Positions 8,296 to 53,298 of a stretch of 64,000 nucleotides of DNA are shown piece after piece. Positions within the stretch are counted from its first letter, which is position 1. Each line of letters starts with the position of its first letter. The stretch lies in the NCBI GenBank assembly GCA_021825295.1, contig JAKAHV010000002.1, positions 70,189 to 134,188 on the forward strand, given 5' to 3'. Made by a program: the position numbers and the translations under genes. The notes under the pieces were generated by a model that saw nothing but the letters and a program-made list of their open reading frames with translations, did no database searches and was not told the DNA's origin. The stretch is from Nitrospirota bacterium (GTDB taxonomy: Bacteria; Nitrospirota; Thermodesulfovibrionia; Thermodesulfovibrionales; JdFR-88).

Positions 8296-9558
8296 TTAGT
8301 CCTGGCCGTGGCACTTGTTGCAGAGGCTCCTCTGGTACGTCCCGTAGAGGGCGGCGATGTCGCGGCCGTAATAGGGGGCGTTGTTGACAAAGACATGGGT
8401 GACCCTGTCGCCTGTGTTGGCCGGATGGGACTGGGCCAGGAACTCCGCCTGGGTGTCCCATCTGGTCATCTCCGGGAAGGCGGAGGCGTGCGCCCTGTGG
8501 CAGCTCAGGCACATGGCGTTTGCGGGGGGGGACGTGGCCGGGCCGGCGGTGCTTGTGTTGCTCAGGACGGCGCCAAGGCCCCGTTCGAACGGGACGAGGG
8601 AGAGATAGGAGTTGTTTGAGTTGCCGCTGAAATCCCCGGATTTGACATAGGAATTGTAATTGTCCGCAATGCCCCTGGCAAACACGGCGGAAATGCCCGC
8701 CGGGTGGCGGTGCAGGGCGGCCGTGCCGTTGGTGGAGTTCAGGAACTTGTCATGGCAGTTGGCGCACCATTCGGACATGCCGTAGCCGTAGTCCGTGTGG
8801 CGCAGGTTGTCGTAGGTCTCCGTAAACGGCGGGGGGACCGAGACGGCCATGGGGGCGTTATAGGCGAAAGTCATGAGGAACTCGTGGTTGCCCGTATAAA
8901 ACCTGTCGCCAAGCAGCCTGTAATTGCCTGCCTGATACCCGCTTGGCACGGCCAGCCCGTATGAGCCGGACTCCACGATCGCCTCCTGGCCCGCCAGGGA
9001 GCCCCCGTTGGCCCGCCCGTGGGGGTCGTGGCAACTGTTGCAGGCAAGCGCGCTGGCTGGATATCTGATCGTGCTGCCGGGCGCCACCGTGAGCGAGGTG
9101 TCGGCGGTAAGCCCGAAGTCCGCGGCGATTATGTTGTGGCCGTGTTCCTGCCCCAGGACCGTGACGGGCTGCAGGGAAACGCCGCCGGCCTGCGGCGTGT
9201 AGGTGACATCCTCGGTGAGCCAGAAGAAATCTCCACCCGGGGTGAATGCGCTGCCGTCGGTGGTCAGCACGGATATGGGGGATTTTGAGTGGCAGTTAAG
9301 ACAGGTGGAGCTGGCATCGGAGCCCTGAAGCAGGTACGTGTTGGCCGCCTGGCCCGCCACGCCCGCCGGCAGGCCGCCGGCAACGGTGGCATTGCTGGCG
9401 CCGGGCGTTACAAAATTGTTGTGCATCGTATGGCAGCCCTCGCAATAGCCGACGCCTCCATTATGGAACGCCGAGGCGGTCTTGCCGCCGGCCGCCGCCA
9501 GGGCATAGATGACCATCACAAGGGCGGCTGCGGTGAATATGGACCTGGGGAATTTCAT
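8296..9558 (-). CDS. Secreted hexahaem c-type cytochrome, OmcS-family paralog 1 (most divergent)
   Basis: Start taken at MKFPRS, with GGAGG 7 nt upstream. Signal peptide, then FHNGGVGYCEGCHTMHN. Six CxxCH motifs: CEGCH, CLNCH, CNSCH, CANCH, CLSCH, CNKCH. C-terminus YQRSLCNKCHGQD. Confidence 0.8.
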   Translation of the reverse strand: MKFPRSIFTAAALVMVIYALAAAGGKTASAFHNGGVGYCEGCHTMHNNFVTPGASNATVAGGLPAGVAGQAANTYLLQGSDASSTCLNCHSKSPISVLTTDGSAFTPGGDFFWLTEDVTYTPQAGGVSLQPVTVLGQEHGHNIIAADFGLTADTSLTVAPGSTIRYPASALACNSCHDPHGRANGGSLAGQEAIVESGSYGLAVPSGYQAGNYRLLGDRFYTGNHEFLMTFAYNAPMAVSVPPPFTETYDNLRHTDYGYGMSEWCANCHDKFLNSTNGTAALHRHPAGISAVFARGIADNYNSYVKSGDFSGNSNNSYLSLVPFERGLGAVLSNTSTAGPATSPPANAMCLSCHRAHASAFPEMTRWDTQAEFLAQSHPANTGDRVTHVFVNNAPYYGRDIAALYGTYQRSLCNKCHGQD

Positions 9559-9732
9559 GGGCCGGCCTCCTGGCCGCATGCGGGGGTTTTTTGTTGGCCG
9601 TCCGGTTTGGATTACGCCTGACTCTGGAGAACCGCGGAGTGCTGCCCTGAACCTGTCAATTACGAACTCTCCGGCGATGCGCCGGCTGATTAAAACCTAT
9701 CAGGAATCCAGTGGGATGTCAATCTTTAAAAC

Positions 9733-9756
9733 AAAAAACCCCTGAAAATTCAAGGG
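9733..9756 (-). terminator. Rho-independent terminator of the csp gene
   Basis: Minus-strand RNA reads cccuug-aauuuu-cagggg followed by UUUUUU, immediately after the csp stop. Confidence 0.6.
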
Positions 9757-9790
9757 CTTTTTGTCTTTTATATACCGGGTTATATCGTGG

Positions 9791-9994
9791 TTATGCTTTT
9801 TTCTCCACGTTCACGGCCCTTGGCCCCTTTGGCCCCTGTTCGACGTCGAAGCTGACCGCCTGGCCTTCGGCAAGTGTCTTGAACCCGTCTGATTTTATTG
9901 CGGAGAAATGGACGAAGACTTCGTTGCCGTCATCCGCGGTGATAAAACCGAACCCCTTCGCTTCGTTGAACCATTTTACTTTGCCTGTCTGCAT
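9791..9994 (-). CDS. cspA: Cold-shock protein (CspA family)
   Basis: 67 aa; [15 protein letters not shown] and VFVHFSAI carry the RNP1/RNP2 motifs. Confidence 0.92.
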
Positions 9995-10110
9995 CTGGTG
10001 AAAAGACCTCCTTGAATTTTTAAAAAAATAACCCTATAGCCTCTCCGGGTAATGCAAAACGTGAATACTTTGCCATGGGTCCGCCCCTAAAGTCAATCTT
10101 TCTGCCAGTT

Positions 10111-10318
10111 GGGCCTGCGTCAGATTTGTGGGGCTGGTATCTGCCTGTTCCTGGAGAGAAGCGAAGAGCGGACGGATACGACGGGCCCCATCATGACAAT
10201 GGCTTGATATTCGCCCTTGGCGGCAATCCCGCCGCAGGGGGCTTACGCCCGGAACCGCGCGCTGAACGGAAGGGGCAGGCAGATGCCACGCCTTGCCCCA
10301 CAAATCTGACGCAGGCCC
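10111..10318 (+). mobile_element. MITE family B copy 1 (24-nt perfect TIR gggcctgcgtcagatttgtggggc)
   Basis: Left end 10111-10134 is the exact reverse complement of right end 10295-10318. A second copy lies at 19781-20016. There is no coding capacity. Confidence 0.75.
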
Positions 10319-10376
10319 CTGCCAGTTTTCTCACCCCTCAATCTTTCCCTATCAGGCGGTCTAAATCCAATTTTAG

Positions 10377-10409
10377 GTGAAATCACGCAAATGCCATGTG
10401 GGATTTCAC
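10377..10409. promoter_or_regulatory. Inverted repeat GTGAAATC-N16-GATTTCAC, candidate enhancer (UAS) for the sigma-54 promoter downstream
   Basis: 8-bp perfect arms. A related AAATCACGCAgAAT..GGGATTTC site sits upstream of the second sigma-54 promoter (12213-12238). Confidence 0.4.
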
Positions 10410-10565
10410 AGAGCAGGGGCGGATAGCGCCAGCGCCTCCCGAATTGGGAAACCCTGGCCAATCACCAGTGCTTTTTAAAAAGTTTGTTGTTTTTAAATGA
10501 TTTTATTTGAGTTTCTATTCAAACAATTAAATATATAGATAATTGCGAATATTTTAAAAAAGCCT

Positions 10566-10581
10566 TGGTATGCAAATTGCT
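10566..10581 (+). promoter_or_regulatory. Sigma-54 (-24/-12) promoter candidate for OmcS-family paralog 2
   Basis: TGGTATGCAAATTGCT has GG-N10-GC spacing exactly as in the TGGCAC-N5-TTGCW consensus. An AT-rich tract with an IHF-like ATTCAAacaaTTA (10517-10529) lies just upstream. Confidence 0.6.
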
Positions 10582-10740
10582 CGTACGCAAGCCAAGAGTG
10601 ATAAGAAGCAAAGGCCCCGGGGCTCAGTTGAGGCAAGGGCCGGAGCTGGACGGGAGGAGGTGGTAGTGCAGGCGAGAGTATTGGGGAGTGCATAGGACTT
10701 GCCGCCATGCCCGGCAAAAATGGTTTTCCGGGTTGGCTGG

Positions 10741-10815
10741 CGGCAAACTGGATCCGGCCGTTATCGCCGGGAGGCGAAAAAGCTGCGAGGGTTTTGGCCC
10801 CGGGCGCGGCTGCCG
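10741..10815 (+). promoter_or_regulatory. Candidate GEMM-I-like (cyclic-dinucleotide) riboswitch fold in the paralog-2 leader
   Basis: Three-way junction drawn by hand. P1 is cggca/tgccg (10741-45/10811-15). GGCAAAC is followed by hairpin tccggc-cgttatc-gccggga, then junction ggCGAAAAAGC, then P3 ctgcg...cgcgg. It resembles the GGCAAAC...GACGCAAAGC consensus as I recall it, with deviations. Confidence 0.3.
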
Positions 10816-10864
10816 GAGAAGTAACCGGACATTAAACAAAGAAGGAAGAATTAGGGGGAAATTG

Positions 10865-12139
10865 ATGAAAGCAGTCAAAGTCGCATTAATCCTTATGGCC
10901 GCCGCCCTTGTCGTCTTCGGGCTTAGCGGCGCGGCCTTCGCCTTCCATGACGGCGGCGTCGCGTACTGCGAGGGCTGTCATACGATGCACAACTCGATGG
11001 GCGGAGTGTCCAACAGCGTAGGCGGCTGGGGCTCACCCGGCGTCACCCACAACCAGTACCTGCTGAAGGGCACGGACCCCAGCTCCACCTGCCTCAACTG
11101 CCACTCCCACAAGGGTGCGAAATACAACATCTTCAGCACGGACGGCAGCTCGTATACTCCCGGCGGTGACTTCTACTGGATCACCCAGACCTATACCTAT
11201 TCGCCCTGGACCGGCAACACCGCCACCTCCCAGGCGCAGAACCACGGCCATGACATAGTTGCGGCCGACTTCAGCCTCAGCACGGATACCATCCTTACGG
11301 CTGCCCCCGGCAACGGCACGCAGCCGGTGTATTACGCCAGCAACCTGGCCTGCAACTCCTGCCACAACCCGCACGGCCGCGTAAACGGCGGTACGAGGAA
11401 CGGCCAGAAGCCTGTCGGGCAGTCCGGCTCTTACGGCTATACCCCGGTAACCGGGACGATAAACGGCAACTACAGGCTCCTCGCGGACACCTACTATCAG
11501 CCTGGCGATCCGTCCGTCTATGATCCGGCCCCGTCCGGCGTCGCGGGTTATCCCCAGGCCTTTACTTACATCGCAAACGCCCCGGTCGCGGTCGCGCCGG
11601 CTACCTTCAGAGAGGTTGAAGGTCTTGGCACGGCTGGCATATCGCACACCGACTACGGCAACGGCATCGCCGAGTGGTGCGCCAACTGCCACCAGGGCTT
11701 CCTGAACAACGACGCAACCGGCACGACCGGCACCCACAGGCACCCGGCAGGCGACAGCGCCACCCTGGGCCCCACGATCGCCGGCTTCTACAACGAGTAC
11801 GTCTCCACCGGCAACATAACCGGCACGTCGGCTAACGCCTTCCTGCCTCTGGTCCCGTTTGAAAGAGGCGCGGGCGCAACCCTGAGCTCGACCAGCACGG
11901 CGGGCCCGGACGGCACCAACGCGGCAGTTATGTGCCTCACCTGCCACAGGGCTCATGCCTCCGCCTTTGACGAGGGCACCAGGTGGGATACTCAGGCAGA
12001 GTTCATCTCCGCCTCGAGCGCTCTTATAGCCACCGCCAAGCCCTGGGTCGCCAACGCCCCGTACTACGGCTGGGACATCGTGGCCAACATGGGCTCGTAT
12101 CAGAGGCAGCTCTGCAACAAGTGCCACATCCAGGACTAA
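10865..12139 (+). CDS. Secreted hexahaem c-type cytochrome, OmcS-family paralog 2
   Basis: The real start is ATG 10865 (MKAVKVALILMAAAL...); the 10688 extension covers the leader. AFA|FHDGGVAYCEGCHTMHN, six CxxCH, C-terminal YQRQLCNKCHIQD. Confidence 0.85.
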   Translation: MKAVKVALILMAAALVVFGLSGAAFAFHDGGVAYCEGCHTMHNSMGGVSNSVGGWGSPGVTHNQYLLKGTDPSSTCLNCHSHKGAKYNIFSTDGSSYTPGGDFYWITQTYTYSPWTGNTATSQAQNHGHDIVAADFSLSTDTILTAAPGNGTQPVYYASNLACNSCHNPHGRVNGGTRNGQKPVGQSGSYGYTPVTGTINGNYRLLADTYYQPGDPSVYDPAPSGVAGYPQAFTYIANAPVAVAPATFREVEGLGTAGISHTDYGNGIAEWCANCHQGFLNNDATGTTGTHRHPAGDSATLGPTIAGFYNEYVSTGNITGTSANAFLPLVPFERGAGATLSSTSTAGPDGTNAAVMCLTCHRAHASAFDEGTRWDTQAEFISASSALIATAKPWVANAPYYGWDIVANMGSYQRQLCNKCHIQD

Positions 12140-12171
12140 TCCTGGCGGCATAGCCTTATACGTGTAGCAGC

Positions 12172-12198
12172 GCGGGGGCGGACACCGTCCGCCCCCGC
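12172..12198 (+). terminator. 12-bp GC stem-loop after paralog 2 (no U-tract)
   Basis: gcgggggcggac-acc-gtccgcccccgc read directly. No T-run follows, so it may be a terminator or an RNA-stabilising hairpin. Confidence 0.4.
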
Positions 12199-12212
12199 AT
12201 CTCCATCTGCGC

Positions 12213-12238
12213 TAAATCACGCAGAATGGGGGATTTCG
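12213..12238. promoter_or_regulatory. Second copy of the AAATCACGCA..GGGATTTC motif, candidate UAS
   Basis: taaatcacgcagaatgggggatttcg lies about 90 nt upstream of the sigma-54 promoter at 12324 and is similar to 10377-10409. Confidence 0.35.
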
Positions 12239-12323
12239 CCTGTAAAAGAGGCTTGTTCGACTTTTTGCCTTTTTGAGGGTTTTTTTGATGTTTTTCCGCC
12301 GGTTATTGTATTATGAATCCTCC

Positions 12324-12339
12324 TGGTATGTTAATTGCT
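12324..12339 (+). promoter_or_regulatory. Sigma-54 promoter candidate for the NHL gene (and possibly paralog 3)
   Basis: TGGTATGTTAATTGCT matches the 10566 site at 13 of 16 positions, with GG-N10-GC spacing. It lies 27 nt before ATG 12366. Confidence 0.6.
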
Positions 12340-12365
12340 CCCAAGCTATAGCGGAGGGCTTGCAA

Positions 12366-13355
12366 ATGGAGGATGGCAAAGTGGGCGAAAAGGCAGAGTA
12401 CGGAAGGAAAAGGTTTACGGCGGCCCTTCCTGTCTTGTTTCTCCTCCTTGCGGTCTTTCCCGGCCCCTCGCGGGCGTACGGCCTGAGGGTCAGCTACCAG
12501 TACAACCTGGCCGACTCCACCGGCGACATACCGTTTAGCTACGGCGCAAAGCTGGCCATAGACAAGTCCAGGGGCGAAGTCTACGTGACCGACTCCATGC
12601 AGGGCGGGGTCACGATTTTTAATACGACCGGAATGAGGGTCTACCGGTTCGGGGACCAGGCCGACCTGGGCTTCATAGAGGACGTCGCCATCGACAGGAA
12701 GGGCGACATCTTCACCCTTTCCTATAACGACACCAGGCAGCTCTTTTTCATCGGCCTCTGCAACTACAGGGGGGAGCTGCAGTCAAAGATTACGGTCAGC
12801 GGCCTTCCGTCAGGCTTTTCCCACTTCAAGCCCGGCCGCATCTTCTACAACAAGGGCATAATTTACCTCGCGGACGACGAGGACATGCTGGTGGCGCTTG
12901 TAAACCTCCAGGGCAAGTGCATCAGGACTTACCAGTTGAACAAAATCCTTAAATTTACGCCCAAGATGATCAGGGACGACAACAGCGCCTTCGGGTTCGC
13001 GATAGACGATGATGGCAACATGTATCTGACCATCCCGACGCTTTTCCGGGCATACCGGATCACGCCGGACGGGAAGGCCGAGACTTTTGGGAGGGGTGGC
13101 AGCGGTCCCGGCAGGTTCGGGGTCGCCGCCGGGATAGCCGTGGACGGCAACGGCTATATCTACGTCTCGGACAGGCTGCGCTGCTGCGTGCTCGTCTTCA
13201 ACAAGGACCTCAACTTCGTGACCGAATTCGGCTACCGGGGCTTCGGGCCGGGCTCTCTCATAGTCCCCAGCGACGTGGTCGCGGGTCCTGACGGGAGGAT
13301 TTACGTCAGCCAGGCAGGCAACCGGGGTGTGAGTGTTTTCAGCGCGGCTTATTAG
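12366..13355 (+). CDS. NHL-repeat beta-propeller protein, secreted
   Basis: Start at MEDGKV after gcggaggg. Signal-like LPVLFLLLAVFPGPSRA. Repeats of the type GPGRFGVAAGIAVDGNGYIYVSDRLRCCVLVF. Confidence 0.75.
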   Translation: MEDGKVGEKAEYGRKRFTAALPVLFLLLAVFPGPSRAYGLRVSYQYNLADSTGDIPFSYGAKLAIDKSRGEVYVTDSMQGGVTIFNTTGMRVYRFGDQADLGFIEDVAIDRKGDIFTLSYNDTRQLFFIGLCNYRGELQSKITVSGLPSGFSHFKPGRIFYNKGIIYLADDEDMLVALVNLQGKCIRTYQLNKILKFTPKMIRDDNSAFGFAIDDDGNMYLTIPTLFRAYRITPDGKAETFGRGGSGPGRFGVAAGIAVDGNGYIYVSDRLRCCVLVFNKDLNFVTEFGYRGFGPGSLIVPSDVVAGPDGRIYVSQAGNRGVSVFSAAY

Positions 13356-13609
13356 AACAGCCGGAAACAGGGAAGGGGGTGATTGCATAAGGGCAGCAAA
13401 AGGGTCTGCCAACCGGCCAAGGGGAAGATTTGCCGGCCGGCGGCAGGCAGGCTCCGGCCCGTCCTGCATCAGGTAGCTTTCCGTACGGGGTTATCCCCTG
13501 GAGCATCCAACGGGGCCCCCTCAAAAGGGGGAGGATGAACGGGGATATGAACGGAAAGGGCCCGGGACGGGACTCGGGAAAAGGGGGAAACCAATAACAA
13601 GGAGGGATC

Positions 13610-14902
13610 ATGAAAGCAACAAGGCTTGCTCTTGTCCTCATGGCCGCGGCCGCGCTCGTCTTCGCGTTTGCCGGCGCGGCATTCGCGTTCCATGACGGCG
13701 GCGTCGCGTTCTGCGAGGGCTGCCACACGATGCATAACTCGCTGGGCGGCGTGTCAAACAGCGTAAGCGGCTGGGGCAGCCCCGGCGTCACCCACAACCA
13801 GTATCTCCTGAAGGGCACGGACCCCAGCTCCACCTGCCTCAACTGCCACTCCCATTCGGGCGCGAGCTATCAGGTTCTGAGCACGGACGGCAGCGCCTAC
13901 ACTCCTGGCGGCGACTTCTACTGGCTCAGCCAGACCTACACCTATTCGCCCTGGTCCGGCAACACTTCGACCTCCCAGGGGCAGAACCACGGCCATACCG
14001 TGGTTGCGGCCGACTTCGCACTGAGCACGAGCACCATACTCACGGTGGCCCCCGGGGCCGGCACTCAGCCGGTGTATTACGCCAGCAACCTGGCCTGCAA
14101 CTCCTGCCACAACCCGCACGGCCGTGTAAACGGCGGCACCAGGAACGGCCAGGCGCCGGTTATGGGCTCCGGCTCTTACGGGAACACGGCTCCCAGCGGC
14201 ACGATACTTGGCAACTACAGGCTCCTCGCGGACACCTACTACGCACCTGGCGACCCGACCGTCTATGATCCGGCCCCGTCCGGTATCGCGGGCTATCCCC
14301 AGGCATTTACTTACATCGCCAACGCCCCCATAGCGGTAGCTCCGAATGTCGGCCACAGTGCCGCATCGATGCATGAGGTTGAGGGCCTGGGCACGACGGG
14401 TATCGAACACACCGACTACGGCTCGGGCGTCGCCGAGTGGTGCGGCAACTGCCACCAGGGTTTCGTGAACAACGCCGCAGACGGGACGAGCACTACCCAC
14501 AGGCACCCGGCCGGGGATACCGCCACTCTGGGCGCCACAATCGCCGGCTTCTATAATGAATATGTCTCGACCGGCAACATACACGGCACCAGCGCGAATG
14601 CCTACCTGCCTCTGGTCCCGTTTGAAAGGGGCGCGGGCGCAACCCTGAGCGCAAGCAGCACGGCGGGCCCGGACGGGGTTAAGTCGGCCGTCATGTGCCT
14701 TAGCTGCCACAGGGCGCACGCCACCGCCTTTGACGAGATGACCAGGTGGGACACCAGCGCCGATTTCATCTCCGCCTCGAGCGCTCTTATAGCCACCGCC
14801 AAGCCCTGGGCCGCCAACGCCCCGTACTACGGCTGGGACATCGTGGCCAATATGGGCTCTTACCAGAGAAGCCTCTGCAACAAGTGCCACATCCAGGATT
14901 AA
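13610..14902 (+). CDS. Secreted hexahaem c-type cytochrome, OmcS-family paralog 3
   Basis: AFA|FHDGGVAFCEGCHTMHN, six CxxCH, YQRSLCNKCHIQD. Long runs are nucleotide-identical to paralog 2. Confidence 0.85.
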   Translation: MKATRLALVLMAAAALVFAFAGAAFAFHDGGVAFCEGCHTMHNSLGGVSNSVSGWGSPGVTHNQYLLKGTDPSSTCLNCHSHSGASYQVLSTDGSAYTPGGDFYWLSQTYTYSPWSGNTSTSQGQNHGHTVVAADFALSTSTILTVAPGAGTQPVYYASNLACNSCHNPHGRVNGGTRNGQAPVMGSGSYGNTAPSGTILGNYRLLADTYYAPGDPTVYDPAPSGIAGYPQAFTYIANAPIAVAPNVGHSAASMHEVEGLGTTGIEHTDYGSGVAEWCGNCHQGFVNNAADGTSTTHRHPAGDTATLGATIAGFYNEYVSTGNIHGTSANAYLPLVPFERGAGATLSASSTAGPDGVKSAVMCLSCHRAHATAFDEMTRWDTSADFISASSALIATAKPWAANAPYYGWDIVANMGSYQRSLCNKCHIQD

Positions 14903-14927
14903 TCACCGTGGCTTAGAGGTATCTATC

Positions 14928-14957
14928 GGGGGCGGGGTTTGTTCCGCCCCCTTTTTT
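14928..14957 (+). terminator. Rho-independent terminator 1 after paralog 3
   Basis: 8-bp stem gggggcgg/ccgccccc followed by TTTTTT. Confidence 0.7.
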
Positions 14958-14963
14958 CCATCA

Positions 14964-14994
14964 GGGGCCGGCTCACCGCCGGCCCCTCTTTTTT
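14964..14994 (+). terminator. Rho-independent terminator 2 after paralog 3 (tandem)
   Basis: 9-bp stem ggggccggc/gccggcccc followed by tcTTTTTT. Confidence 0.7.
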
Positions 14995-15214
14995 GGTGAT
15001 AGGAAATTTTAGAACCTCAAAAATAAAATTTTATTGTTTGCATTTCCCTTTGGAATTTGTTGAAAGGCCGTCATACCGGTCCCGCCGGGGCGGGATATCC
15101 AGTGACTTTGCCGTGGAGCCTTAACGTCACTGGATTCCGGATTACTAAATCTGGAATGACGGCTTAAAATTCAATAGATACCCTGCAACTTGCTGCAGGG
15201 TGATTCATTTCCTC

Positions 15215-15243
15215 TTGGTATCCCGCCCGTTTTTCACTATAAT
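15215..15243 (+). promoter_or_regulatory. Sigma-70-like promoter candidate far upstream of paralog 4
   Basis: TTGGTA-N17-TATAAT read directly. It lies about 445 nt upstream of ATG 15688, with REP-like hairpins in between. A similar TATAATGGA occurs at 17709 upstream of paralog 5. Confidence 0.3.
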
Positions 15244-15687
15244 GGAGTGGATTGCGCATCCCCAAAGTTTGACTTTTTCCCTTTTCGCATGCCCCGGGGG
15301 CATGCCCACAGTGCCTGCTGGTTTATGAATTTCTGTATGTTTTTCAATAGGCTTGAATATGTGATTTTCAGGGAGTTCTAACAGGATGCGGAAAAACTAT
15401 TTTCGAGCCTTTTATCCGTAATTCCCGCGAAGGCGGGAATCCAGGTTTTTCAATGACTTATATTTAAAGTGGATTCCAAGCCGGGGAATGACGAATTTGA
15501 GACTTTTTCAACAGCCTGCTAATCAATCGTCTTCATCGGGGAAAGGAGGTGGCTTAAAAAAGATAAAAAATCGGGGCCCTTTAAAAGTTTCACAGGGAGA
15601 AGCGGGGCCTGCCGGGGGCTTGCTGCCGGCGGGCATGGAGAAACAGCGGGGAAAAGGGCATATATCGATAAGGGAGGGTATTTATTG

Positions 15688-16977
15688 ATGAAAGCTCTGA
15701 AGACCGGACTCGTCCTGCTGGCCGCGGTCTTTCTGGTTGCCGCATTGGGCGGGACTGCCATCGGCTTCCATGACGGCGGCGTGGCCTACTGCGAGGGCTG
15801 CCACACGATGCACAACTCGCTTGGCGGCGTGTCAAACAGCATTCATGGCGCGGGCACCCCCGGCACCGCTTTAAACCAGTATCTTCTCAAGGGTACGGAC
15901 CCAAGCTCCACCTGCCTGAACTGCCACTCGCAGCCGACCGGCAACAACATCCAGGTGCTGAGCCTGGACGGCACCGCCTATACGCCGGGCGGCGACTTCT
16001 ACTGGCTCAAGGAGACCTACACCTATTCTCCATGGGCCGGCGCCACCCTCACCTCAAACGGGCAGAACCACGGCCATACCGTGGTGGCAATCGACTTCTC
16101 CCTCACAACGAGCACCATACTTACCGTGGCCCCGGGGCGGGGCACCCAGCCGGAGTATTATTCCAGCAACCTGGCCTGCAACTCCTGCCATAACCCGCAC
16201 GGCCGGGTCGACGGAGGCACCAGGAGCGGCAAGGTGGGGCCGGTCGCGCAGTCCGGCTCCTACGGCTACGCCCCCATAGCCGGGACCGTAAACGGCAACT
16301 ACAGGCTCCTCGCGGACATCGGCTACGCCCCCGGCGACCCCGCCGTCTTCGGTCCGCAACCCTCCGGCGTGGCAGGCTATCCCCAGGCGTTTACTTACAT
16401 CGCGAACGCCCCGGTGGCGGTCTCGCCTATCAACTTCAAGGAGGTTGAGGGCCTTGGCGCGGCCGGCATAGAGCACGTCGATTACGGGACGGGCGTTGCC
16501 GAGTGGTGCGCCAACTGCCACCAGGGATTTTTGAACGACGCCTCTCCCCACGGCACATCCACCTACCACCGCCATCCGGCCGGCGACACCGCCAGGCTCG
16601 GCGGCCTCGCAGACCTCTATAACTCATACGTCAAATCTGGCGTCTATACCGGCGCGCAGGCGACCTCCTATCTGCCCCTTGTGCCATTTGAAAGGGGGAC
16701 AGCCACAGGGCTGGCCGCCAACAGCCCGGCGGGGCCGCTTGCGGGCGGGGCGGGCAGCGAAGCCGTCATGTGCCTTAGCTGCCACAGGGCGCACGCGAGC
16801 GCATTCGACGAGATGACAAGGTGGGACACGACCGCGGAGTTCATGTCCGCATCGAGCGCGCTGATCGCGACCGCCAGGCCCTGGGCCACCAACGCGCCTT
16901 ATTACGGCTGGGACATAGTGGGCCAGATGGGCTCCTATCAGAGGAACCTCTGCAACAAGTGCCATGTGCAGGATTAA
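15688..16977 (+). CDS. Secreted hexahaem c-type cytochrome, OmcS-family paralog 4
   Basis: ATG 15688, preceded in frame by TTG 15685. AIG|FHDGGVAYCEGCHTMHN, six CxxCH, YQRNLCNKCHVQD. Confidence 0.85.
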   Translation: MKALKTGLVLLAAVFLVAALGGTAIGFHDGGVAYCEGCHTMHNSLGGVSNSIHGAGTPGTALNQYLLKGTDPSSTCLNCHSQPTGNNIQVLSLDGTAYTPGGDFYWLKETYTYSPWAGATLTSNGQNHGHTVVAIDFSLTTSTILTVAPGRGTQPEYYSSNLACNSCHNPHGRVDGGTRSGKVGPVAQSGSYGYAPIAGTVNGNYRLLADIGYAPGDPAVFGPQPSGVAGYPQAFTYIANAPVAVSPINFKEVEGLGAAGIEHVDYGTGVAEWCANCHQGFLNDASPHGTSTYHRHPAGDTARLGGLADLYNSYVKSGVYTGAQATSYLPLVPFERGTATGLAANSPAGPLAGGAGSEAVMCLSCHRAHASAFDEMTRWDTTAEFMSASSALIATARPWATNAPYYGWDIVGQMGSYQRNLCNKCHVQD

Positions 16978-17063
16978 CCCCTCGCTCTTCCGCCGGTGTG
17001 ACCCCTCTCCCACCGGGAGAGGGTTTGGGTGAGGGGGACCAAGCCCCAAGGTGAGAATGAACC

Positions 17064-17108
17064 GGGGCCGGCAATTTTTTATTTTTAGTTGCCGGCCCCC
17101 ATCTTTTG
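17064..17108 (+). terminator. Hairpin terminator after paralog 4
   Basis: 11-bp stem ggggccggcaa/ttgccggcccc with an AT-rich loop, then a weak T-run (atcttttg). Confidence 0.5.
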
Positions 17109-17336
17109 CGCCTCCTTCTGCTCCGATAAATCCGTCATTCCCCGGCTTGACCGGGGAGTTCACGTTCCGCGCCTCCTTCAGTCTCGATTGCATCGTTAGA
17201 GTCACCAAGGCGGCCATAAGTAACGCGGCACAGTTTGTCATCGTCCCGAAAATGCCCCTTCCCCTGCCTTGTGCCTGGTATCCGCCCGGCCCTTTCGTTC
17301 GGCTCGCGCGGTTCCGGACGAGTACAAACGGCGCTG

Positions 17337-17590
17337 GGCAAAAGGCGGATGGGAACATGGCTCGCATCATTCTCGCCGGCCATCCCTGGCCGGCTCCGAG
17401 GCTTTTGCCTATCCGGACGTCCATGTCCGGATTACGGCAAAAAAATCCGCTCCCATGCCCCCATCCGCCTTTTGCCTTACACGCGATTCGCTTATACCCG
17501 GTCGTTGGAGGAGTCGCCGGACGGAAAAAAAGGATTGAGAGATCCCGCCAAGGCGGGACAGCGGCAGAAAAAAAGCAGCAAAAAAAGAAA
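17337..17590. repeat. Repeat family A, internal-module copy (no TIRs)
   Basis: It shares ggcaaaaggcggatgggaacatggctcgcatc...atccgccttttgccttacacgcgattcgcttataccc and gcggcagaaaaaaagc with 43820-44070, and carries an extra insertion in the hairpin. Confidence 0.5.
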
Positions 17591-17970
17591 GATTATAGCG
17601 CACGGGCTTTTCGCCTTAAAGTTGTTCTGATACCCCCAACCATTTATTTATCTTTTACCGCGTATTTTGCCGCACTATCACCCCATGGCATATTGCCTTC
17701 CATTCAGGTATAATGGATAAATTACAATTTTAGGTTGTGAATGCGTGAAAAGGCGCAGGATGTGGAATTGAGGTTCACAAAAGGCTTTTTGTACCGGTAA
17801 GGGGGGTGATTGCAAAAAGGGGAAAAAGGCCAGCCCGCGGGCTTTATCGCCCGGCGGGCAGTCTCCGGCCCGTCTTTGGCGGGAGGCTCAGGAAGATATC
17901 CGGATGCGTGACGGGGCCCGGGGGAAGAAACAATGGGGGAAAATAAATCCTTCAATCAGGGAGGGTATTG

Positions 17971-19260
17971 ATGAAAGCATTGAAGATCTGGCTCATACTC
18001 ATGGCCGCGGCCTTGGCCGTTTTCGCCTTTAACGGCGCGGCCCTTGCGTTCCATGACGGCGGCGTGGCCTACTGCGAGGGCTGCCACACGATGCATAACT
18101 CGGTAGGCGGGGCTGTCGTCAATACACCTGGCGGGGTAAAGGGCACTGTCGGCAACGGCCTCAATGAGTATCTACTGCAGGGCTCGGACCCGAGCTCCAC
18201 CTGCCTCAACTGCCACGCGAAAAATACGATGGGCGCGAACATCCAGGTGCTCAGCTCTGACGGCACCGCCTATACGCCGGGCGGCGACTTTTACTGGGTC
18301 AACAAGACCTACACCTATTCCCCGTGGGCCGGCGCAAACATGACCTCGGAGGGGTATAACCACGGCCACAGCGTCATAGCCTCCGACTTCGGCCTTTCCG
18401 AGGACTCTCACTTCGCGGGCAATGTGGGACCTGGCGGGACCTATCCCGCCTCCAACCTGGCCTGCAACTCCTGCCACAACCCGCACGGCCGCGTCAACGG
18501 GGGCACAAGAAACAGCGAGGGGCCGGTGAAGGCTTCCGGCTCCTACGGCCCGGGTTTCTGCACTCCTGACGCCAGCGGGATATGCGGCAACTACAGGCTC
18601 CTGGCGGACGGCCTCTACAATGCCGGCGACCCCGCTGTCTTCGGAAGCTCCTCAGCGCAGGGTTTCCCGGTGCAAGGCTATCACTACACCGCCAACGCGC
18701 CCGTTGCCGTGGCGCCGCAGGATTTCCGGGAAAAGGAGGACGGCTACGGCACAGGTTCCGGCATCGAGCACGTGGATTACGGCACCGGCATCGCCGAGTG
18801 GTGCGCCAACTGCCACGGCGCTTTCCTGAACAACAGCGGAGGGACGGGCACGGGCTACCACCGCCACCCGGCGGGCGACAGCGCCAAGCTTGGCGGCCTG
18901 GCCAGCCTCTACAACTCATATGTAAAGTCCGGCGACTATGCAGGCGACAGCAGCAAATCCTATCTGCCGCTGGTGCCTTTTGAAAGGGGCGTGGCGACGG
19001 GGCTCGTCGCAAACAGCCCCGCGGGGCCTGACGGCGCAAACGCGGCCGTCATGTGCCTGAGCTGCCACAGGGCGCACGCCTCGGCATTCGACGAGATGAC
19101 CAGGTGGGACACCAGCGCGGAGTTCATGTCCGCCTCTAGCGCGCTTATCGCCACCTCGAAGCCATGGGCCGCCAACGCCCCGTATTACGGCTGGGACATA
19201 GTGGGACAGATGGGCTCCTACCAGAGGAACCTCTGCAACAAGTGCCACGTGCAGGATTAA
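17971..19260 (+). CDS. Secreted hexahaem c-type cytochrome, OmcS-family paralog 5
   Basis: ALA|FHDGGVAYCEGCHTMHN, six CxxCH, YQRNLCNKCHVQD. An extra Cys pair (GFCTPDASGIC) is unique to this copy. Confidence 0.85.
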   Translation: MKALKIWLILMAAALAVFAFNGAALAFHDGGVAYCEGCHTMHNSVGGAVVNTPGGVKGTVGNGLNEYLLQGSDPSSTCLNCHAKNTMGANIQVLSSDGTAYTPGGDFYWVNKTYTYSPWAGANMTSEGYNHGHSVIASDFGLSEDSHFAGNVGPGGTYPASNLACNSCHNPHGRVNGGTRNSEGPVKASGSYGPGFCTPDASGICGNYRLLADGLYNAGDPAVFGSSSAQGFPVQGYHYTANAPVAVAPQDFREKEDGYGTGSGIEHVDYGTGIAEWCANCHGAFLNNSGGTGTGYHRHPAGDSAKLGGLASLYNSYVKSGDYAGDSSKSYLPLVPFERGVATGLVANSPAGPDGANAAVMCLSCHRAHASAFDEMTRWDTSAEFMSASSALIATSKPWAANAPYYGWDIVGQMGSYQRNLCNKCHVQD

Positions 19261-19296
19261 CGTTCGCGGCATAACGCATCTTTAATATGGCACAGG

Positions 19297-19323
19297 GGCG
19301 GGGCTTGCCCCGCCACGGTTTTT
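19297..19323 (+). terminator. Terminator 1 after paralog 5
   Basis: 7-bp stem gggcggg/cccgccc (19297-19314), then acggTTTTT. Confidence 0.5.
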
Positions 19324-19328
19324 ATAAG

Positions 19329-19356
19329 GGGCCGGCATTCGCCGGCCCTTTTGTTT
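19329..19356 (+). terminator. Terminator 2 after paralog 5
   Basis: 8-bp stem gggccggc/gccggccc followed by TTTTgTTT. Confidence 0.65.
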
Positions 19357-19780
19357 CCGGTTGTAAAAAGCCGGAAGAGCCTGTTGAATTTTTATGGCAA
19401 GCTTGAGTAGGCATTGTACCGTTTTCATAAACTGTTTATCTGGACAATGCCACGGCCTGGCGGATTATGATGGGGAACGGCAGTGCTTTTCAAGAAGCCC
19501 TGCCGCCGGCAGGGAAAGGAGTTTTTATGGGGAAGATCAGTCTCGGGCGAGAAATGCAATTAACCGTCATGAACCCGGGTGTCCGATTGAACGCTTTGAA
19601 CAGCCTGGCTAAAAAAGTTGTTATAAAAGCATAGGTTGCGGTTTTCATCTTGAACGGAAAACGCCAAAAAAAGGCAATGGCGCATCCTGCATCCCGCCGG
19701 GATTCAGTGGAAGCTGAATTATGGGCGTATGCGTATTAACCAAACAGGACATTTCTATTTGGCGTTGACATTTGCGATGG

Positions 19781-20016
19781 GGGCCTGCTTCAGATTTGTG
19801 GGGCCCGTATCTGTCTGTTCCCGGAGAAAAACGTATCTGCCTGTTCCTGGAGAGAAGCGAAGAGCGGACGGATACGAAGTGCTGCATCTTGACGACTTTC
19901 CGCCATTCGCCCATAAAGACGAACTAAACAAAGCCGTCCGAGTACGTCCGGAACCGCGCGCTGATCGGAAGGAGCAGGCAGATGCCCCGCCTAGCCCCAC
20001 AAATATGACGCAGGCC
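19781..20016 (+). mobile_element. MITE family B copy 2 (same orientation as copy 1)
   Basis: Ends are gggcctgcttcagatttgtggggc ... gccccacaaatatgacgcaggcc. The interior is collinear with 10111-10318 plus a short internal duplication (gtatctgYctgttccYgga). Confidence 0.7.
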
Positions 20017-20137
20017 TTTTTGTGATGTATGCGATTGACCGGGCGGGACGCCATTTTATATAATTACCAGTTTTCTATGAAGGCGTTTTTTTAAACTTCT
20101 GATTCGCAGGCGGGTTTGTAAGGAGGTTTTCTAATTC

Positions 20138-21544
20138 TTGGGTAAGCTTGCAAAAATCCCGGTCCTCGCGCTCCTGCTGATCTTCGGATGCCAGATAAAA
20201 CCACAACAGCTCCAGCCTGCCCTTGTGCATGAAGGGGAGGTTTATGTCTACATGGAGCCGCTGCCGCTGAAGGCCCAGAGGTTGAGCTTCACCTTCAACG
20301 GCGTCTATTGCATCCGGGCGGACGGCGCCTTGATACCCCTCAGGCTTCACATGGCCGGGTTCGACTCCGTGCTGGCGGGCAGGCAGAGGCTTGTGGCGCG
20401 CGGCATACTTCCGGCCGGTCAATACACCGGGCTTGCCCTTTCCGTGAAGGACGCCCACCTGAGATCGGAGGAAGGCATGCAGTCTTCCCTCCTCGTTCCG
20501 GACAAGCCGGTGAGGCGCGAGCTGCCCTTCACGGTCAGGGAAAGGGGCGGCGTGGTCATCTCCATGACCCTCCGGTACGGCCAGGCGGTCCGGGCGGGGT
20601 TCAATTTCACGCCCGCCTTCGATCTGAAGATACCCGATAAACCCGTCGATGCGCTTTTGGGCTATGTGGTGAATACCGGTTCGAACGACATCACTGTCTT
20701 TAACAAGCTGGCGATGGAGGTGACGGGGGTCATCGTCACCGGGGCGGGCCCGATGGGGATGGCCCTGGACCCGAACCTGAAGAGGGGTTATGTGGCGCTC
20801 TCCCGGGAGGACGCGATCGACGTGATAGACATGACGGAGGGCGCGGTGGTGGGCCGCATACGGCTTAACACGGGGGACAGCCCCAGCCAGGTGGCGCTTA
20901 CGCCGGACGGCGGCGCGCTGCTGTCCGTCAACACCGGCTCCAACACCGTAAGCGTTATAGACCCCGTCTCCTTCGTGGAGCGAAGCCGGATAAAGGTGGG
21001 GATACAGCCCGTCTACATACAGCTTGACCCTTCCGGCAAGAGGGCCTACGTCTTCAACTATTTCTCGAACACCATCTCCATAATAGACCTTACCTCGGGC
21101 TCCGTGGTGGCCACCGTCCCCACGGACCCCGCCCCCATAAGGGGCGCTTTTGACCGCAGCGGCGGCAAGCTTTACATAATTAACGAGAGCACTCCCTATC
21201 TCACGGTCCTGGACACCTCCAGCCTTGCCGTCATAAAGCGGCAGTTCGCCGGGCAGGGCATGAGGGCCATAAAGGTGGACACGAGATCGGACCTCATCTA
21301 CATAGGGAAAATGAACACCCCCCTTCTTGAGGTTTACGACCCGTTTACCTTCATACCGGTCGATTACATAAAAGCCGGTGAGGACCCGGCCTACATGACT
21401 ATAGACAACGACGAGAACAACCTCTGCGTGGTTGACCCCGTCCTGCGGTCGCTCATTTTCATAAGCCTGTCGAGCAGGAAGACCGTCTCCATGATCGACG
21501 TCGGCAGCGGCCCGTACTGGGTGAGCCTCATGGGGGAGAGGTAA
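20138..21544 (+). CDS. Lipoprotein with YVTN-type beta-propeller repeats
   Basis: TTG start after AAGGAGG. Lipobox LLLIFGC. Repeats of about 40 residues such as GYVVNTGSNDITVFN, SVNTGSNTVSVIDP and YVFNYFSNTISIIDL. Confidence 0.7.
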   Translation: MGKLAKIPVLALLLIFGCQIKPQQLQPALVHEGEVYVYMEPLPLKAQRLSFTFNGVYCIRADGALIPLRLHMAGFDSVLAGRQRLVARGILPAGQYTGLALSVKDAHLRSEEGMQSSLLVPDKPVRRELPFTVRERGGVVISMTLRYGQAVRAGFNFTPAFDLKIPDKPVDALLGYVVNTGSNDITVFNKLAMEVTGVIVTGAGPMGMALDPNLKRGYVALSREDAIDVIDMTEGAVVGRIRLNTGDSPSQVALTPDGGALLSVNTGSNTVSVIDPVSFVERSRIKVGIQPVYIQLDPSGKRAYVFNYFSNTISIIDLTSGSVVATVPTDPAPIRGAFDRSGGKLYIINESTPYLTVLDTSSLAVIKRQFAGQGMRAIKVDTRSDLIYIGKMNTPLLEVYDPFTFIPVDYIKAGEDPAYMTIDNDENNLCVVDPVLRSLIFISLSSRKTVSMIDVGSGPYWVSLMGER

Positions 21545-50323: not shown

Positions 50324-51784
50324 ATGGAAATAAAATCGCTGCCACGGAACGAGGACTGGTTCGGAAGGATCTTTGAGGACAACCCGGCGGGCATGATAAT
50401 AGCCGGCCTGGACCTGGGCTATATCAGGGCCAACCCTGCCTTTTGCCGCGCGACCGGGTATGCTGATGAGGACCTCCGCGGCCTGCGCATTACGGACATC
50501 GTCCACTCCGGCGACCGTGAGGCCGCGGCTGATATGCTGGAGCGGCTTCTTAAGGATGAGATATCCTGCGCGCGGCTTGAAAAGCGATACGTGAAAAAAA
50601 ACGGGGGTCTTTTATGGGGCAACACCATGTTTTACCCCGCGCGTGACGCCCTGGGCAAGCAGCTTTACCTGATCGGGATGGTCGAAGACATCACCGAAAG
50701 GAAGCAGGCGGAGGAAGACAGGGCGCTGCTTTCCGCGGCGGTCTCCTCTTCGTCCGACGCCGTGGTCATAGCGGCCACCAGCGGCAAGATACGCTATGTC
50801 AACTGGGCATTCGAAAAGATAACGGGATATCAGAAAAAAGAGGTTTTGGGCGCCAATCTGAAAGACCTGGCAAAAAAAACCGGACAGGCCTGTTGTTTTC
50901 CGGACGCCTTTGATGAGACCGTCAGGACCGGCAATCTCTGGACCGGGACCACCGCCGGCACAAGAAAAGACGGCACGCCTTATACCGTCGAGGATACAAT
51001 CGCCCCCGTCAGAAATCGTGCCGGAAAGGTCGTAAACATGATAGTCATGAAGAGGGACATAACGGAAAAGCTGCGCCTGGAGTCCATTGCCGAGGCGGTC
51101 AACACGATGGACAACATAGGCTACATATTCTCCGGCATAAGGCACGAGATAGGCAACCCGGTAAGCTCCGTGAAAATGGCCCTGAGCGTCCTTCGCAGCA
51201 AACTCGACGACGGCTGCACAAGGGAGCTTATAGACAAATACCTGGACAGGGCCATGGCCGAGCTCTCCAGGATGGAATATCTTCTGAAGGCCATGAAGAG
51301 CTTCAATATATATGAATCTCCCGACATCAGGGACATGGACATGACGGCCTTCACAGACAATCTCGGGAGCCTGCTTGTAGAGGATTTCAAAAAAAAGGGC
51401 ATACAGATCGGGGTCATGGTGCAGCCCGGGGCCGGCTGCGCCCATGCGGACCCGAGGGCGCTCCAGCAGGTCCTGCTGAACATAATCACCAACGCCGCCG
51501 ACGCCCTTGAGGGCAGGCCCGCCCCGAGGATAGACATAAAGGTGATGAAAATGGCCGGCCGGATACTCGTACACGTGGAGGACAACGGGTGCGGGATGCC
51601 GCCGAAGCAGGTCAAGGACGCCTTCAGGCCCTTTTACACCACAAAGCCGAACGGCACCGGGCTGGGGCTCATGCTGGCCAAAAAGATGATCACCAGGATG
51701 AAGGGCACCATCGAGATTTCAAGCGAACAGGGCGTGGGCACCGCCGTGGACATATTCATTCCGGAGGGTACGGATGGAAAATAA
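50324..51784 (+). CDS. PAS-domain sensor histidine kinase
   Basis: Two PAS-like modules, an H-box GIRHEIGNPV, and the ATPase blocks NAADAL, DNGCGM and GTGLGL. Confidence 0.85.
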   Translation: MEIKSLPRNEDWFGRIFEDNPAGMIIAGLDLGYIRANPAFCRATGYADEDLRGLRITDIVHSGDREAAADMLERLLKDEISCARLEKRYVKKNGGLLWGNTMFYPARDALGKQLYLIGMVEDITERKQAEEDRALLSAAVSSSSDAVVIAATSGKIRYVNWAFEKITGYQKKEVLGANLKDLAKKTGQACCFPDAFDETVRTGNLWTGTTAGTRKDGTPYTVEDTIAPVRNRAGKVVNMIVMKRDITEKLRLESIAEAVNTMDNIGYIFSGIRHEIGNPVSSVKMALSVLRSKLDDGCTRELIDKYLDRAMAELSRMEYLLKAMKSFNIYESPDIRDMDMTAFTDNLGSLLVEDFKKKGIQIGVMVQPGAGCAHADPRALQQVLLNIITNAADALEGRPAPRIDIKVMKMAGRILVHVEDNGCGMPPKQVKDAFRPFYTTKPNGTGLGLMLAKKMITRMKGTIEISSEQGVGTAVDIFIPEGTDGK

Positions 51785-53156
51785 ACCGGGTAGAAAAATC
51801 CTGATAATCGATGACGACAAGACCTTCTGCCAGTCCCTCAGGGAGTACCTGGAACAGGACTCCCTCAGCGTCATGGTCGCCAACACGGGGGCCGAGGGGC
51901 TTTCCGCCAGTTCCGCGGGCGATATCGATGTCGTCCTGCTGGACCAGAAACTGCCCGATGTGGAAGGCGATTCGCTCTGCACCTCCCTTCTCAATTACAA
52001 CGAACAGACCAAGATCATTTTCATCACCGCCCATGCCAGCTACGAAGGCGCCGTGAAGGCGATAAAGTCCGGGGCCTTCAACTACCTCACCAAGCCGTTC
52101 GAGCTGGCGGAGCTGGACCACGCGATAGAGCACGCCCTGCGGACAACCGAGCTTGAAAATGTCGAGCAGATACATAAATACCGAAGCGCCAAGGAGAGCG
52201 AAGAGGCGGTGCTCGTAGGCGAAAAGGGCGGCCTCGCCTCGATTTCAAATCTTATCGAATCGGCTGCCTCAACCATGGCCCCGGTGCTTATCACCGGAGA
52301 GACCGGCACAGGCAAAAACGTGATCACCAAGGCCATACATTACAGGAGCCCGCTCAGGCGGGCCCCCTTCATCAGCATAAACTGCGCCGCGCTCCCTGAG
52401 AACCTGATAGAATCGGAGCTCTTCGGCTACCAGAAGGGGGCCTTCACAGGCGCTGTCTCCGCGAAGAAAAGCATTTTCGAGATGGCCGAAGGCGGCACCC
52501 TGCTTCTGGATGAGATCGGGGAGATGCCCCTGCACCTGCAGTCCAAACTGCTGGGGGTCCTCGAGGACCATAAGATACGCCGGCTGGGCAGCGAGCTGAT
52601 AAGGACCGTAAACGTCCGCATAATAGCCGCAACGGGCAAGGACCTGGAAAAGTGCCTCGGCGAGAGTTTCAGGAAAGACCTTTACTTCCGCCTGAGCGTC
52701 ATACGCGTACATGTGCCTCCGCTCAGAGACCGCAAAGAGGACATACCGGCGCTGTTCGATTACTTCCTGTCGAAAATTCCTGGCGGCAGGGAGATGGTCT
52801 TCCCGGAACCGGAACTGAAAAAATGCATCGAGTACCCCTGGCCTGGAAACATTCGCGAGCTTAAAAACATAATCGAACGCTCGGTGATACTCCAGAAAAA
52901 TTCCGGGGTGCTCAGGCCCTCCGAACTCCTGGCCTGTCCGTCCGAATGGGAAGGAGGACAGCCGGCCGCGCCGGGAGATGGCGCAGTGGCCGCCGCCACC
53001 CCCGGGGAGGACCTGCTCAGCCTGGCCGAGGTGGAAAAAAATTATATCAGACACGCCCTTTCCAGACTTTCAGACAACCTGACAAGAACCGCAAAGGCCC
53101 TCGGCATCTCGCTGTCCACCCTTAAGAGAAAAGTGAAAGAATATGGGCTAAAATGA
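51774..53156 (+). CDS. Sigma-54-dependent response regulator (NtrC family)
   Basis: Receiver domain, AAA+ GETGTGKNV, GAFTGA (ESELFGYQKGAFTGA), and a C-terminal Fis-type HTH. It overlaps the kinase gene by 11 nt. Confidence 0.9.
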   Translation: MENKPGRKILIIDDDKTFCQSLREYLEQDSLSVMVANTGAEGLSASSAGDIDVVLLDQKLPDVEGDSLCTSLLNYNEQTKIIFITAHASYEGAVKAIKSGAFNYLTKPFELAELDHAIEHALRTTELENVEQIHKYRSAKESEEAVLVGEKGGLASISNLIESAASTMAPVLITGETGTGKNVITKAIHYRSPLRRAPFISINCAALPENLIESELFGYQKGAFTGAVSAKKSIFEMAEGGTLLLDEIGEMPLHLQSKLLGVLEDHKIRRLGSELIRTVNVRIIAATGKDLEKCLGESFRKDLYFRLSVIRVHVPPLRDRKEDIPALFDYFLSKIPGGREMVFPEPELKKCIEYPWPGNIRELKNIIERSVILQKNSGVLRPSELLACPSEWEGGQPAAPGDGAVAAATPGEDLLSLAEVEKNYIRHALSRLSDNLTRTAKALGISLSTLKRKVKEYGLK

Positions 53157-53162
53157 CCCGCT

Positions 53163-53177
53163 GGTTCAAAATGAACC
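53163..53177. promoter_or_regulatory. Perfect palindrome GGTTCA-AAA-TGAACC, candidate activator site
   Basis: Read directly. It lies about 90 nt upstream of the sigma-54 promoter at 53267. Confidence 0.3.
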
Positions 53178-53266
53178 ATCCAAACAATTCACTCCAAGAT
53201 CGGTCCGCCCTGGCGTAGCCTTTGAAACTCCCCGTTTTTTAAAGTAAAAATTTAAAACCCGCAAGC

Positions 53267-53282: not shown

Positions 53283-53298
53283 CTATTACTGTTAATCC

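Follow-up and report, generated by a model that had tools for sequence, protein, structure and literature searches.

An array of OmcS-type cytochrome genes in a Nitrospirota bacterium contains two elements that are probably genuine sigma-54 (RpoN) promoters, each accompanied by an upstream dyad that would serve as the enhancer for an enhancer-binding protein (EBP), and each heading a transcription unit of the array. The stretch of DNA analysed, 64,000 nucleotides and called the window below, is contig C17, 70189-134188, of a 2.89-Mb genome (G000) that is 91% complete. It encodes five OmcS-type hexahaem cytochromes (paralogs 1-5), recognised by Pfam multihaem matches. The first promoter (P1) precedes paralog 2, and the second (P2) precedes a gene for an NHL-repeat beta-propeller that is followed by paralog 3. 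Both promoters and both dyads, termed upstream activating sequences (UAS1 and UAS2), are rare in the genome, the promoters rank among its best sigma-54 sites, and promoters are conserved at orthologous positions in four genera.

Two -24/-12 elements in the OmcS array

P1 (TGGTATGCAAATTGCT, 10566-10581, plus strand) and P2 (TGGTATGTTAATTGCT, 12324-12339, plus strand) carry GG and GC exactly 10 nt apart, within the form TGGCACG-N4-TTGCW, and each departs from the consensus at two positions only (C to T at -23 and -21), both common variants. The initial annotation had reported both elements at these positions with exact GG-N10-GC spacing, and their sequences are confirmed there; it gave the two 16-mers as 13/16 identical, whereas they agree at 14 of 16 positions and differ only at positions 8 and 9. 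Both elements are intergenic, co-oriented with the genes, and sensibly spaced from a ribosome-binding site and start codon. Transcription is predicted to start near 10591-10593 from P1 and near 12349-12351 from P2, and downstream of P2 lie a ribosome-binding site, GGAGGG (12353-12358), and an ATG at 12366.

Searching the window with the strict pattern TGGYAYRNNNNTTGCH returned P1 and P2 as the sole matches, against 0.11 expected from shuffled sequence, and none of 100 shuffles reached two; the whole genome holds 24 matches. In the genome-wide sigma-54 matrix scan that the annotation had proposed, P1 and P2 rank 17th and 18th, both at 17.0 bits. Sites of at least 17 bits number 18 in the genome, compared with 0-6 in each block-shuffled genome (~3 typical). 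The genome also encodes RpoN (contig C42, 203 bits) and 18 full-length EBPs, each scoring above 200 bits.

A look-alike of these promoters occurs within the cytochrome genes themselves. The codons of the EWCANCH haem motif read TGGTGCGCCAACTGCC, a GG-N10-GC sequence found inside every OmcS-type open reading frame (e.g. L005 3311, L006 2511), and loose sigma-54 scans will flag it within OmcS genes of many phyla.

A dyad lies upstream of each promoter

UAS1 (10377-10409) is the palindrome GTGAAATCACGCAA-N5-CATGTGGGATTTCAC, that is GTGAAAT-N19-ATTTCAC, centred 174 bp upstream of the -24 GG of P1. It includes an inverted repeat with 8-bp arms, GTGAAATC/GATTTCAC, as had been annotated. UAS2 (12211-12239), GCTAAATCACGCAG-A-ATGGGGGATTTCGC, is centred 100 bp upstream of the -24 GG of P2. 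The two dyads have the half-site cores AAATCACGCA..GGGATTTC in common, as had been annotated. UAS2 spans 29 nt compared with 33 nt for UAS1, its spacer being 4 bp shorter, and its outer arms are changed to GCTAAAT / ATTTCGC. The combination AAATCACGCAR-N-GGGATTTC matches the window only at 10380-10407 and 12214-12237, with 0.00 matches expected. Likewise, the composite dyad starting with AAATCACGCA occurs genome-wide only at UAS1 and UAS2, and three looser matches lie elsewhere.

Enhancers usually lie about 100-150 bp upstream of their promoters, and looping is often helped by integration host factor (IHF) (PMC7057263); we regard the distances of UAS1 and UAS2 as fitting that usual range. Between UAS1 and P1 lies an AT-rich tract of 96 bp (10470-10565; 81% A+T), presumably a bending or looping region, blocks of which are kept in a second genome of the genus (G002). 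The annotation had described this tract as AT-rich and IHF-like; its composition bears out the first term, and the second comes down to a single IHF-like site before P1, ATTCAAACAATTA at 10517-10529, which has one mismatch to WATCAANNNNTTR. No WATCAANNNNTTR site was found between UAS2 and P2. Genes of the HU/IHF family are present in the genome; the best IHF-beta-like protein, at 112.6 bits, falls just short of the cut-off of 115, and an unambiguous IHF-alpha gene was not found. IHF-assisted looping at P1 is faintly hinted at. Between UAS2 and P2 run four T-tracts (T5, T5, T7 and T5; 12262-12295) with centres 8-11 bp apart, partly kept in G002, which suggests that this DNA is a candidate for intrinsic bending.

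Two further conserved 33-nt sequences match the dyad with one mismatch, each in two genera. One is found at G000:C14:3880-3912 and G004:C15:114003-114035, the other at G000:C31:5231-5263 and G008:C123/C125. The latter, GTGAAATTGAGATTGCGGCGCAGGCAAATTCAC, has more than one copy in G008 and may be a repetitive element, for example a CRISPR repeat.

Conservation in the genus and across the family

We compared the array with its orthologous region in G002, in which both promoters and both dyads are kept (P1, TGGTATGTAAATTGCT; P2, TGGTATATTAATTGCA; UAS1, GTGAAATCACGCAATCGACTTGCGGGATTTCAC; UAS2, GTTAAATCACGCAGTATGAGGGATTTCGC). The four elements form islands of identity, the rest of the spacers being 71-80% identical. 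The arms of UAS1 are identical in the two genomes and its internal spacer has diverged, while UAS2 differs by two spacer bases and one outer-arm base (GCT versus GTT). Distances from dyad centre to -24 GG are nearly the same, 174 versus 176 bp at P1 and 100 versus 99 bp at P2.

The comparison was widened to 12 genomes of the family including G000, about 30 Mb in all; OmcS homologues are present in 7 of the 11 others. The exact dyad GTGAAAT-N19-ATTTCAC occurs four times in this set, where base composition predicts 0.04 copies and a reversed control gave none. Two copies are UAS1 of G000 and of G002, one is in G005 (a second genus) and one in G009 (a third genus), and every one lies 84-176 bp upstream of a sigma-54 site that precedes an NHL or OmcS gene. 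The G005 dyad has perfect 12-bp arms, GGTGAAATTACC / GGTAATTTCACC, and is 93 bp from the promoter TGGTATGTTCATTGCT; that of G009 is 84 bp from the promoter AGGCATGTTAATTGCT. Counting UAS2 of both species, the six dyads have centre-to-GG distances of 174, 176, 100, 99, 93 and 84 bp. In G005 and G009 the promoter is followed by an orthologue of the NHL gene (44-52% identity) and then by OmcS homologues. From that layout, the ancestral order looks like dyad, sigma-54 promoter, NHL gene and OmcS gene, as at P2; P1 before paralog 2 would be an additional copy, seen in this genus. Dyad and promoter thus recur together in two further genera and are not confined to the duplicated regions of one array.

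In a fourth genus, g2 (G003, G010 and G011), the OmcS array includes two homologous promoters that read GGCA..TAATTGCT, one directly before the first OmcS gene and one after the second. Conserved blocks upstream of them contain related half-sites, CGTGATTT and GTAATTTCAC, and the full dyad is not present. A sigma-54 promoter is therefore kept at orthologous intergenic positions in G002, G005, G009, G003, G010 and G011. Across 12 promoters of the family (G038 excluded), GG, the A at -22 and TTGC are invariant, while -26, -23, -21, -20 and the spacer vary, as expected if sigma-54 reads these sites. OmcS homologues of G038, from another family of the order, and of metagenome-assembled genomes that are unrelated (L009, L011) are also preceded by sigma-54-like sites. 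In the cultured Desulfuromonadia that we sampled (Malonomonas, Geomobilimonas), the DNA directly upstream of the OmcS homologues contains no sigma-54 site.

The initial annotation had predicted EBP control of the OmcS-type genes, a prediction supported by the genomic rank of P1 and P2, the presence of rpoN and 18 EBPs, the conservation in G002 and the recurrence in two more genera. We infer the following mechanism from the sequence elements. Sigma-54 RNA polymerase would bind P1 and P2 but could not open them alone. An enhancer-binding AAA+ ATPase would bind the dyad, centred ~175 bp (UAS1) or ~100 bp (UAS2) upstream, reach the polymerase via a DNA loop over AT-rich or T-tract DNA, and spend ATP to open the complex. 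Because sigma-54 polymerase needs an EBP for opening, both units would be off by default, and a single activator that responds to a signal, its gene lying elsewhere in the genome, may turn them on together.

Alternative explanations

Several observations weigh against this mechanism. The sigma-54 matrix was drawn up from the published consensus; we hold it valid because its sites are enriched beside EBP genes in this genome, where 12 of 18 EBP genes have a site of at least 13.5 bits within 4 kb. The array of G000 neither contains nor borders on an EBP gene, and none was found on the array contigs of the 12 family genomes among the matches listed, in contrast to most strong sigma-54 sites of this genome, which do adjoin an EBP gene. 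Both species show the 4-bp difference between the spacers of UAS1 and UAS2 (N19 versus N15), which sits poorly with a single rigid dimer. Half-sites of the N19 form have centres separated by 26 bp, or about 2.5 turns of the helix, and each promoter has a single dyad. A weak sigma-70-like pair, TTGATG-18-TATTAT (12285-12314; 9/12 matches), overlaps P2, and G002 has an approximate counterpart. Finally, a metagenome scan for the dyad together with a promoter gave three unrelated chance matches with no NHL or OmcS gene.

The missing neighbouring EBP gene, the unequal spacers, the single dyads and the sigma-70-like pair would all be accommodated if the sigma-54 promoters are real but the dyad is the site of some other regulator, such as a repressor, a nucleoid-associated or redox-sensing factor, or a co-regulator of sigma-70 transcription at P2. 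We consider this unlikely. All six dyads, from three genera, lie 84-176 bp upstream of a sigma-54 site, the classical position of an enhancer, and none lies anywhere else in 30 Mb. Furthermore, the sigma-70-like hexamers are not kept in G005 and G009, whereas the -24/-12 element is.

The 16-mers might instead be conserved by chance or for another reason, with the real starts provided by sigma-70-type promoters in the AT-rich DNA. About three sites of at least 17 bits arise in each shuffled genome, AT-rich upstream DNA yields sigma-70-like matches, and many sigma-54 sites of E. coli are reported to be non-productive (PMC4591121). However, the two sites are 1.8 kb apart and both correctly placed before genes, both are kept in G002 and homologous across four genera, and substitutions spare exactly GG, A(-22) and TTGC. 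The explanation is accordingly improbable.

We suspect even less that the shared motifs have simply persisted, without function, from the tandem duplication behind the array, and we disfavour this view as very improbable. The array is indeed built of paralogs, the string 'caattttaggt' recurs before paralog 5, and what looks like a decayed sigma-54 element is found there too. Nevertheless, local alignment of the P1 and P2 regions finds only the UAS, and similarity is confined to UAS and promoter; because nothing else is shared, the likeness is not a leftover of recent duplication. P2 moreover precedes the NHL gene and not an OmcS paralog, and the elements are identity islands in G002 that recur in other genera.

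That the dyads act as RNA hairpins (a terminator, stabiliser or leader element) rather than as DNA sites is scarcely credible: UAS1 could fold as RNA (-13.2 kcal/mol, z -2.4) and UAS2 could be transcribed by read-through from P1, but the first promoter of the unit comes only after the dyad in the case of UAS1 and of the copies in G005 and G009, UAS2 RNA forms a different hairpin that leaves the shared arms unpaired, and the outer 7-nt arms are invariant, with no covariation.

Candidate enhancer-binding proteins

If P1 and P2 are EBP-dependent, their activator should be encoded outside the array. We examined the nine EBPs of G000 that have no strong neighbouring sigma-54 site for their presence in two dyad-positive and three OmcS-negative genomes. 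For six of them, orthologues occur in OmcS-negative genomes; a seventh lacks a close orthologue in all five genomes. A paralogous pair on contig C57 is absent from two of the three OmcS-negative genomes, and a tree divides this pair into two orthologue groups. One member, C57:38103-39452, is a REC-AAA-HTH_8 protein encoded inside a polysaccharide-biosynthesis cluster; the presence of its group agrees with that of the array in 10 of 12 genomes, and both mismatches are the two least complete genomes. The annotation had named as candidate an NtrC-type regulator of the window (51774-53156). It also agrees with the array in 10 of 12 genomes, yet it is present in a complete genome without OmcS; it has a sigma-54 promoter and target of its own next to it and fares no better than others. 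Co-occurrence is not decisive here, because two genera in which many genes are missing largely shape the patterns. No UAS-like dyad was found in C57:28000-56000, and none is seen upstream of the promoter belonging to the window regulator. C57:38103 and the window EBP are thus two weak candidates.

The window regulator seems to be part of a self-contained sigma-54 module (50324-53769), in which a PAS histidine kinase (50324-51784) precedes the EBP and a sigma-54 site, TGGCATCCTATTTGCA (53267-53282, 15.6 bits), is followed by a stand-alone receiver gene (53299-53769).

The polysaccharide cluster at C57:35700-52500 encodes, by Pfam, a sugar transferase/CapD fusion, RmlC and a NusG-like protein and, judged from translations only, a DegT-type aminotransferase, an epimerase and a GGDEF protein. 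It holds the two paralogous REC-AAA-HTH EBPs and sigma-54 sites of 17.8, 14.0 and 13.8 bits. One C57 site, GGGCATGCTAATTGCT, has exactly the sequence of the OmcS promoter of G010.

A more far-reaching model, which we put forward as speculation and think rather unlikely, is that the dyad GTGAAAT-N19-ATTTCAC marks a small, dedicated nanowire regulon of this Nitrospirota family under one orphan response-regulator EBP, for which C57:38103-39452 is the best phyletic fit. Matrix polysaccharide, paralogs 2 and 3 and the NHL helper would then be induced together by an external signal, and paralogs 4 and 5 and the companion machinery would be driven by sigma-70. If true, the nanowire regulon would be a regulated switch of filament subunit composition.

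Layout and transcription units of the OmcS array

Paralog 1 (8296-9579) is on the minus strand. Paralog 2 (10865-12139, plus strand), identified by its Pfam multihaem match and by similarity to the OmcS filament 6ef8 (E 1e-66), constitutes transcription unit 1, in which P1 would be followed by a leader of ~273 nt. This long leader (10582-10864, plus strand), whose length holds if P1 is used, has blocks that are kept in G002 and no Rfam match. Behind paralog 2 is a 12-bp G+C hairpin (12172-12198, plus strand), and G002 has a hairpin of different sequence in the same place; it is likely the 3' end of the unit, or a terminator separating the two units. Unit 2 runs from P2 through the NHL gene (12366-13355, plus strand; Pfam NHL match) and paralog 3 (13610-14902, plus strand; Pfam match) to two terminator-like hairpins (14928-14951 and 14963-14987). 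The 254-nt spacer between the NHL gene and paralog 3 holds no sigma-54 or sigma-70-like site, and paralog 3 is probably co-transcribed with the NHL gene.

Paralog 4 (15685-16977), paralog 5 (17968-19260) and the companion gene cluster, which begins at 20138 after paralog 5, are likely units 3-5, with sigma-70-like promoters at 15215-15243, 17685-17714 and 20035-20064, respectively (10-11 of 12 matches). The region contains 12 sigma-70-like matches, compared with 4.0 expected. No sigma-54 site of at least 7.5 bits stands before paralogs 3, 4 or 5 or the companion cluster, and none was found before paralog 1 or the other OmcS homologues of the genome (contigs C39 and C10).

The initial annotation had also pointed to a degenerate relative of the dyad before paralog 5, at 17733-17780. 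The string exists, and it has 'caattttaggt' in common with the flank of UAS1. We rejected it as an enhancer: no sigma-54 site of at least 7.5 bits follows it, and its TGTGAA/TTCACA dyad is absent from G002. It also lies downstream of a conserved sigma-70-like -10 box, TATAAT (17709-17714). Beside this box, TGGCATATTGCC (17686-17697) corresponds to TGGCATATTAATTTGCA in G002 (L057, G002:C74), whose GG-N11-GC spacing exceeds that of a sigma-54 promoter by one base. It appears to be a sigma-54 element that has decayed, which suggests that the type of promoter changed after duplication at paralog 5.

We rejected a riboswitch in the leaders. No match to the Rfam GEMM-I/cGAMP (cyclic GMP-AMP) riboswitch was obtained at the gathering threshold in the window, nor at E up to 5 in 9500-20200. 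A purine-rich leader block, GGGGGTGATTGCA(A/T)AAGGG, occurs before paralogs 3 and 5 (13375-13400 and 17800-17825) and in G002, and the leader of paralog 2 has a purine-rich block GGGAGGAGGTGGTAGTGCAGG (10650-10672). In genus g2 (L048-L050), GGGAGGGGGCTCCCAAA follows the second promoter. The purine-rich leader blocks have no Rfam match and may represent a leader RNA or a protein-binding element common to these genes.

A gene for a cold-shock protein (9731-10110, minus strand) is situated between paralog 1 and UAS1 and occupies the same place in G002. Its 5' leader resembles the Rfam cspA thermoregulator at 76.3 bits, just below the gathering score of 78. An element of ~230 bp with long terminal inverted repeats, gcctgcgtcagatttgtggggc ... 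gccccacaaatctgacgcaggc, is present in two copies (~10090-10320 and ~19785-20015) that bracket paralogs 2-5. It is similar to a miniature transposable element (MITE-like), and G002 has a different palindromic element at the position of the first copy.

Comparison with known systems and implications

P1 and P2 resemble the classical EBP-dependent sigma-54 promoters (nifH/NifA, glnAp2/NtrC, Pu/XylR) in their GG-N10-GC core with TGGYAYG and TTGCW, in a dyad ~85-175 bp upstream, in the AT-rich or T-tract DNA between, and in a genome that encodes RpoN and many EBPs. They differ from these in that each promoter has a single dyad, the spacer comes in two lengths, no cognate EBP gene is close by, and the targets are genes for extracellular cytochrome filaments. 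The UAS of NifA reads TGT-N10-ACA and that of NtrC TGCACC-N5-GGTGCA; the dyad GTGAAAT-N19-ATTTCAC, with its inner CACGCA, matches no such type known to us.

In Geobacter sulfurreducens, pilA, a filament gene needed for extracellular electron transfer, is controlled by PilS/PilR, PilR being an EBP, together with RpoN. The Nitrospirota array would likewise place an extracellular filament tied to electron transfer under sigma-54 and an EBP. In contrast, the Geobacter EBP gene adjoins its target, which is a pilin and not OmcS, and the pilS-pilR-like pair of our window (50324-53156) appears to drive a stand-alone receiver gene and not a pilin gene. The omcS/osc operon of Geobacter is controlled by a GEMM-Ib cGAMP riboswitch and GSU1771, with effects of IHF. 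The Nitrospirota array has homologous OmcS, NHL and companion genes and a long leader before an OmcS gene, but no GEMM riboswitch is recognised by Rfam here, even at E up to 5.

Full-text searches on omcS or cytochrome nanowires in combination with RpoN, sigma-54, PilR or EBP yielded no report of a sigma-54 promoter for omcS-type genes. The mechanism proposed is a textbook one; our data suggest that what is new is its targets, genes for OmcS-type nanowires and an NHL protein under sigma-54 and an EBP in a Nitrospirota family.

To our knowledge, the timing of cytochrome-nanowire building is poorly understood and has been studied almost only in Geobacter. In this Nitrospirota family, part of the OmcS array appears to be under sigma-54/EBP control, and would thus be tightly off by default and dependent on a signal. 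The dyad, conserved in the family and very specific, offers a handle for finding the regulator and hence the signal, and could serve to predict conditional expression among the OmcS paralogs. Sigma-54 has been viewed as a controller of the cell exterior (PMC3162934). Together, these findings would extend its role in cell-exterior structures to cytochrome filaments.

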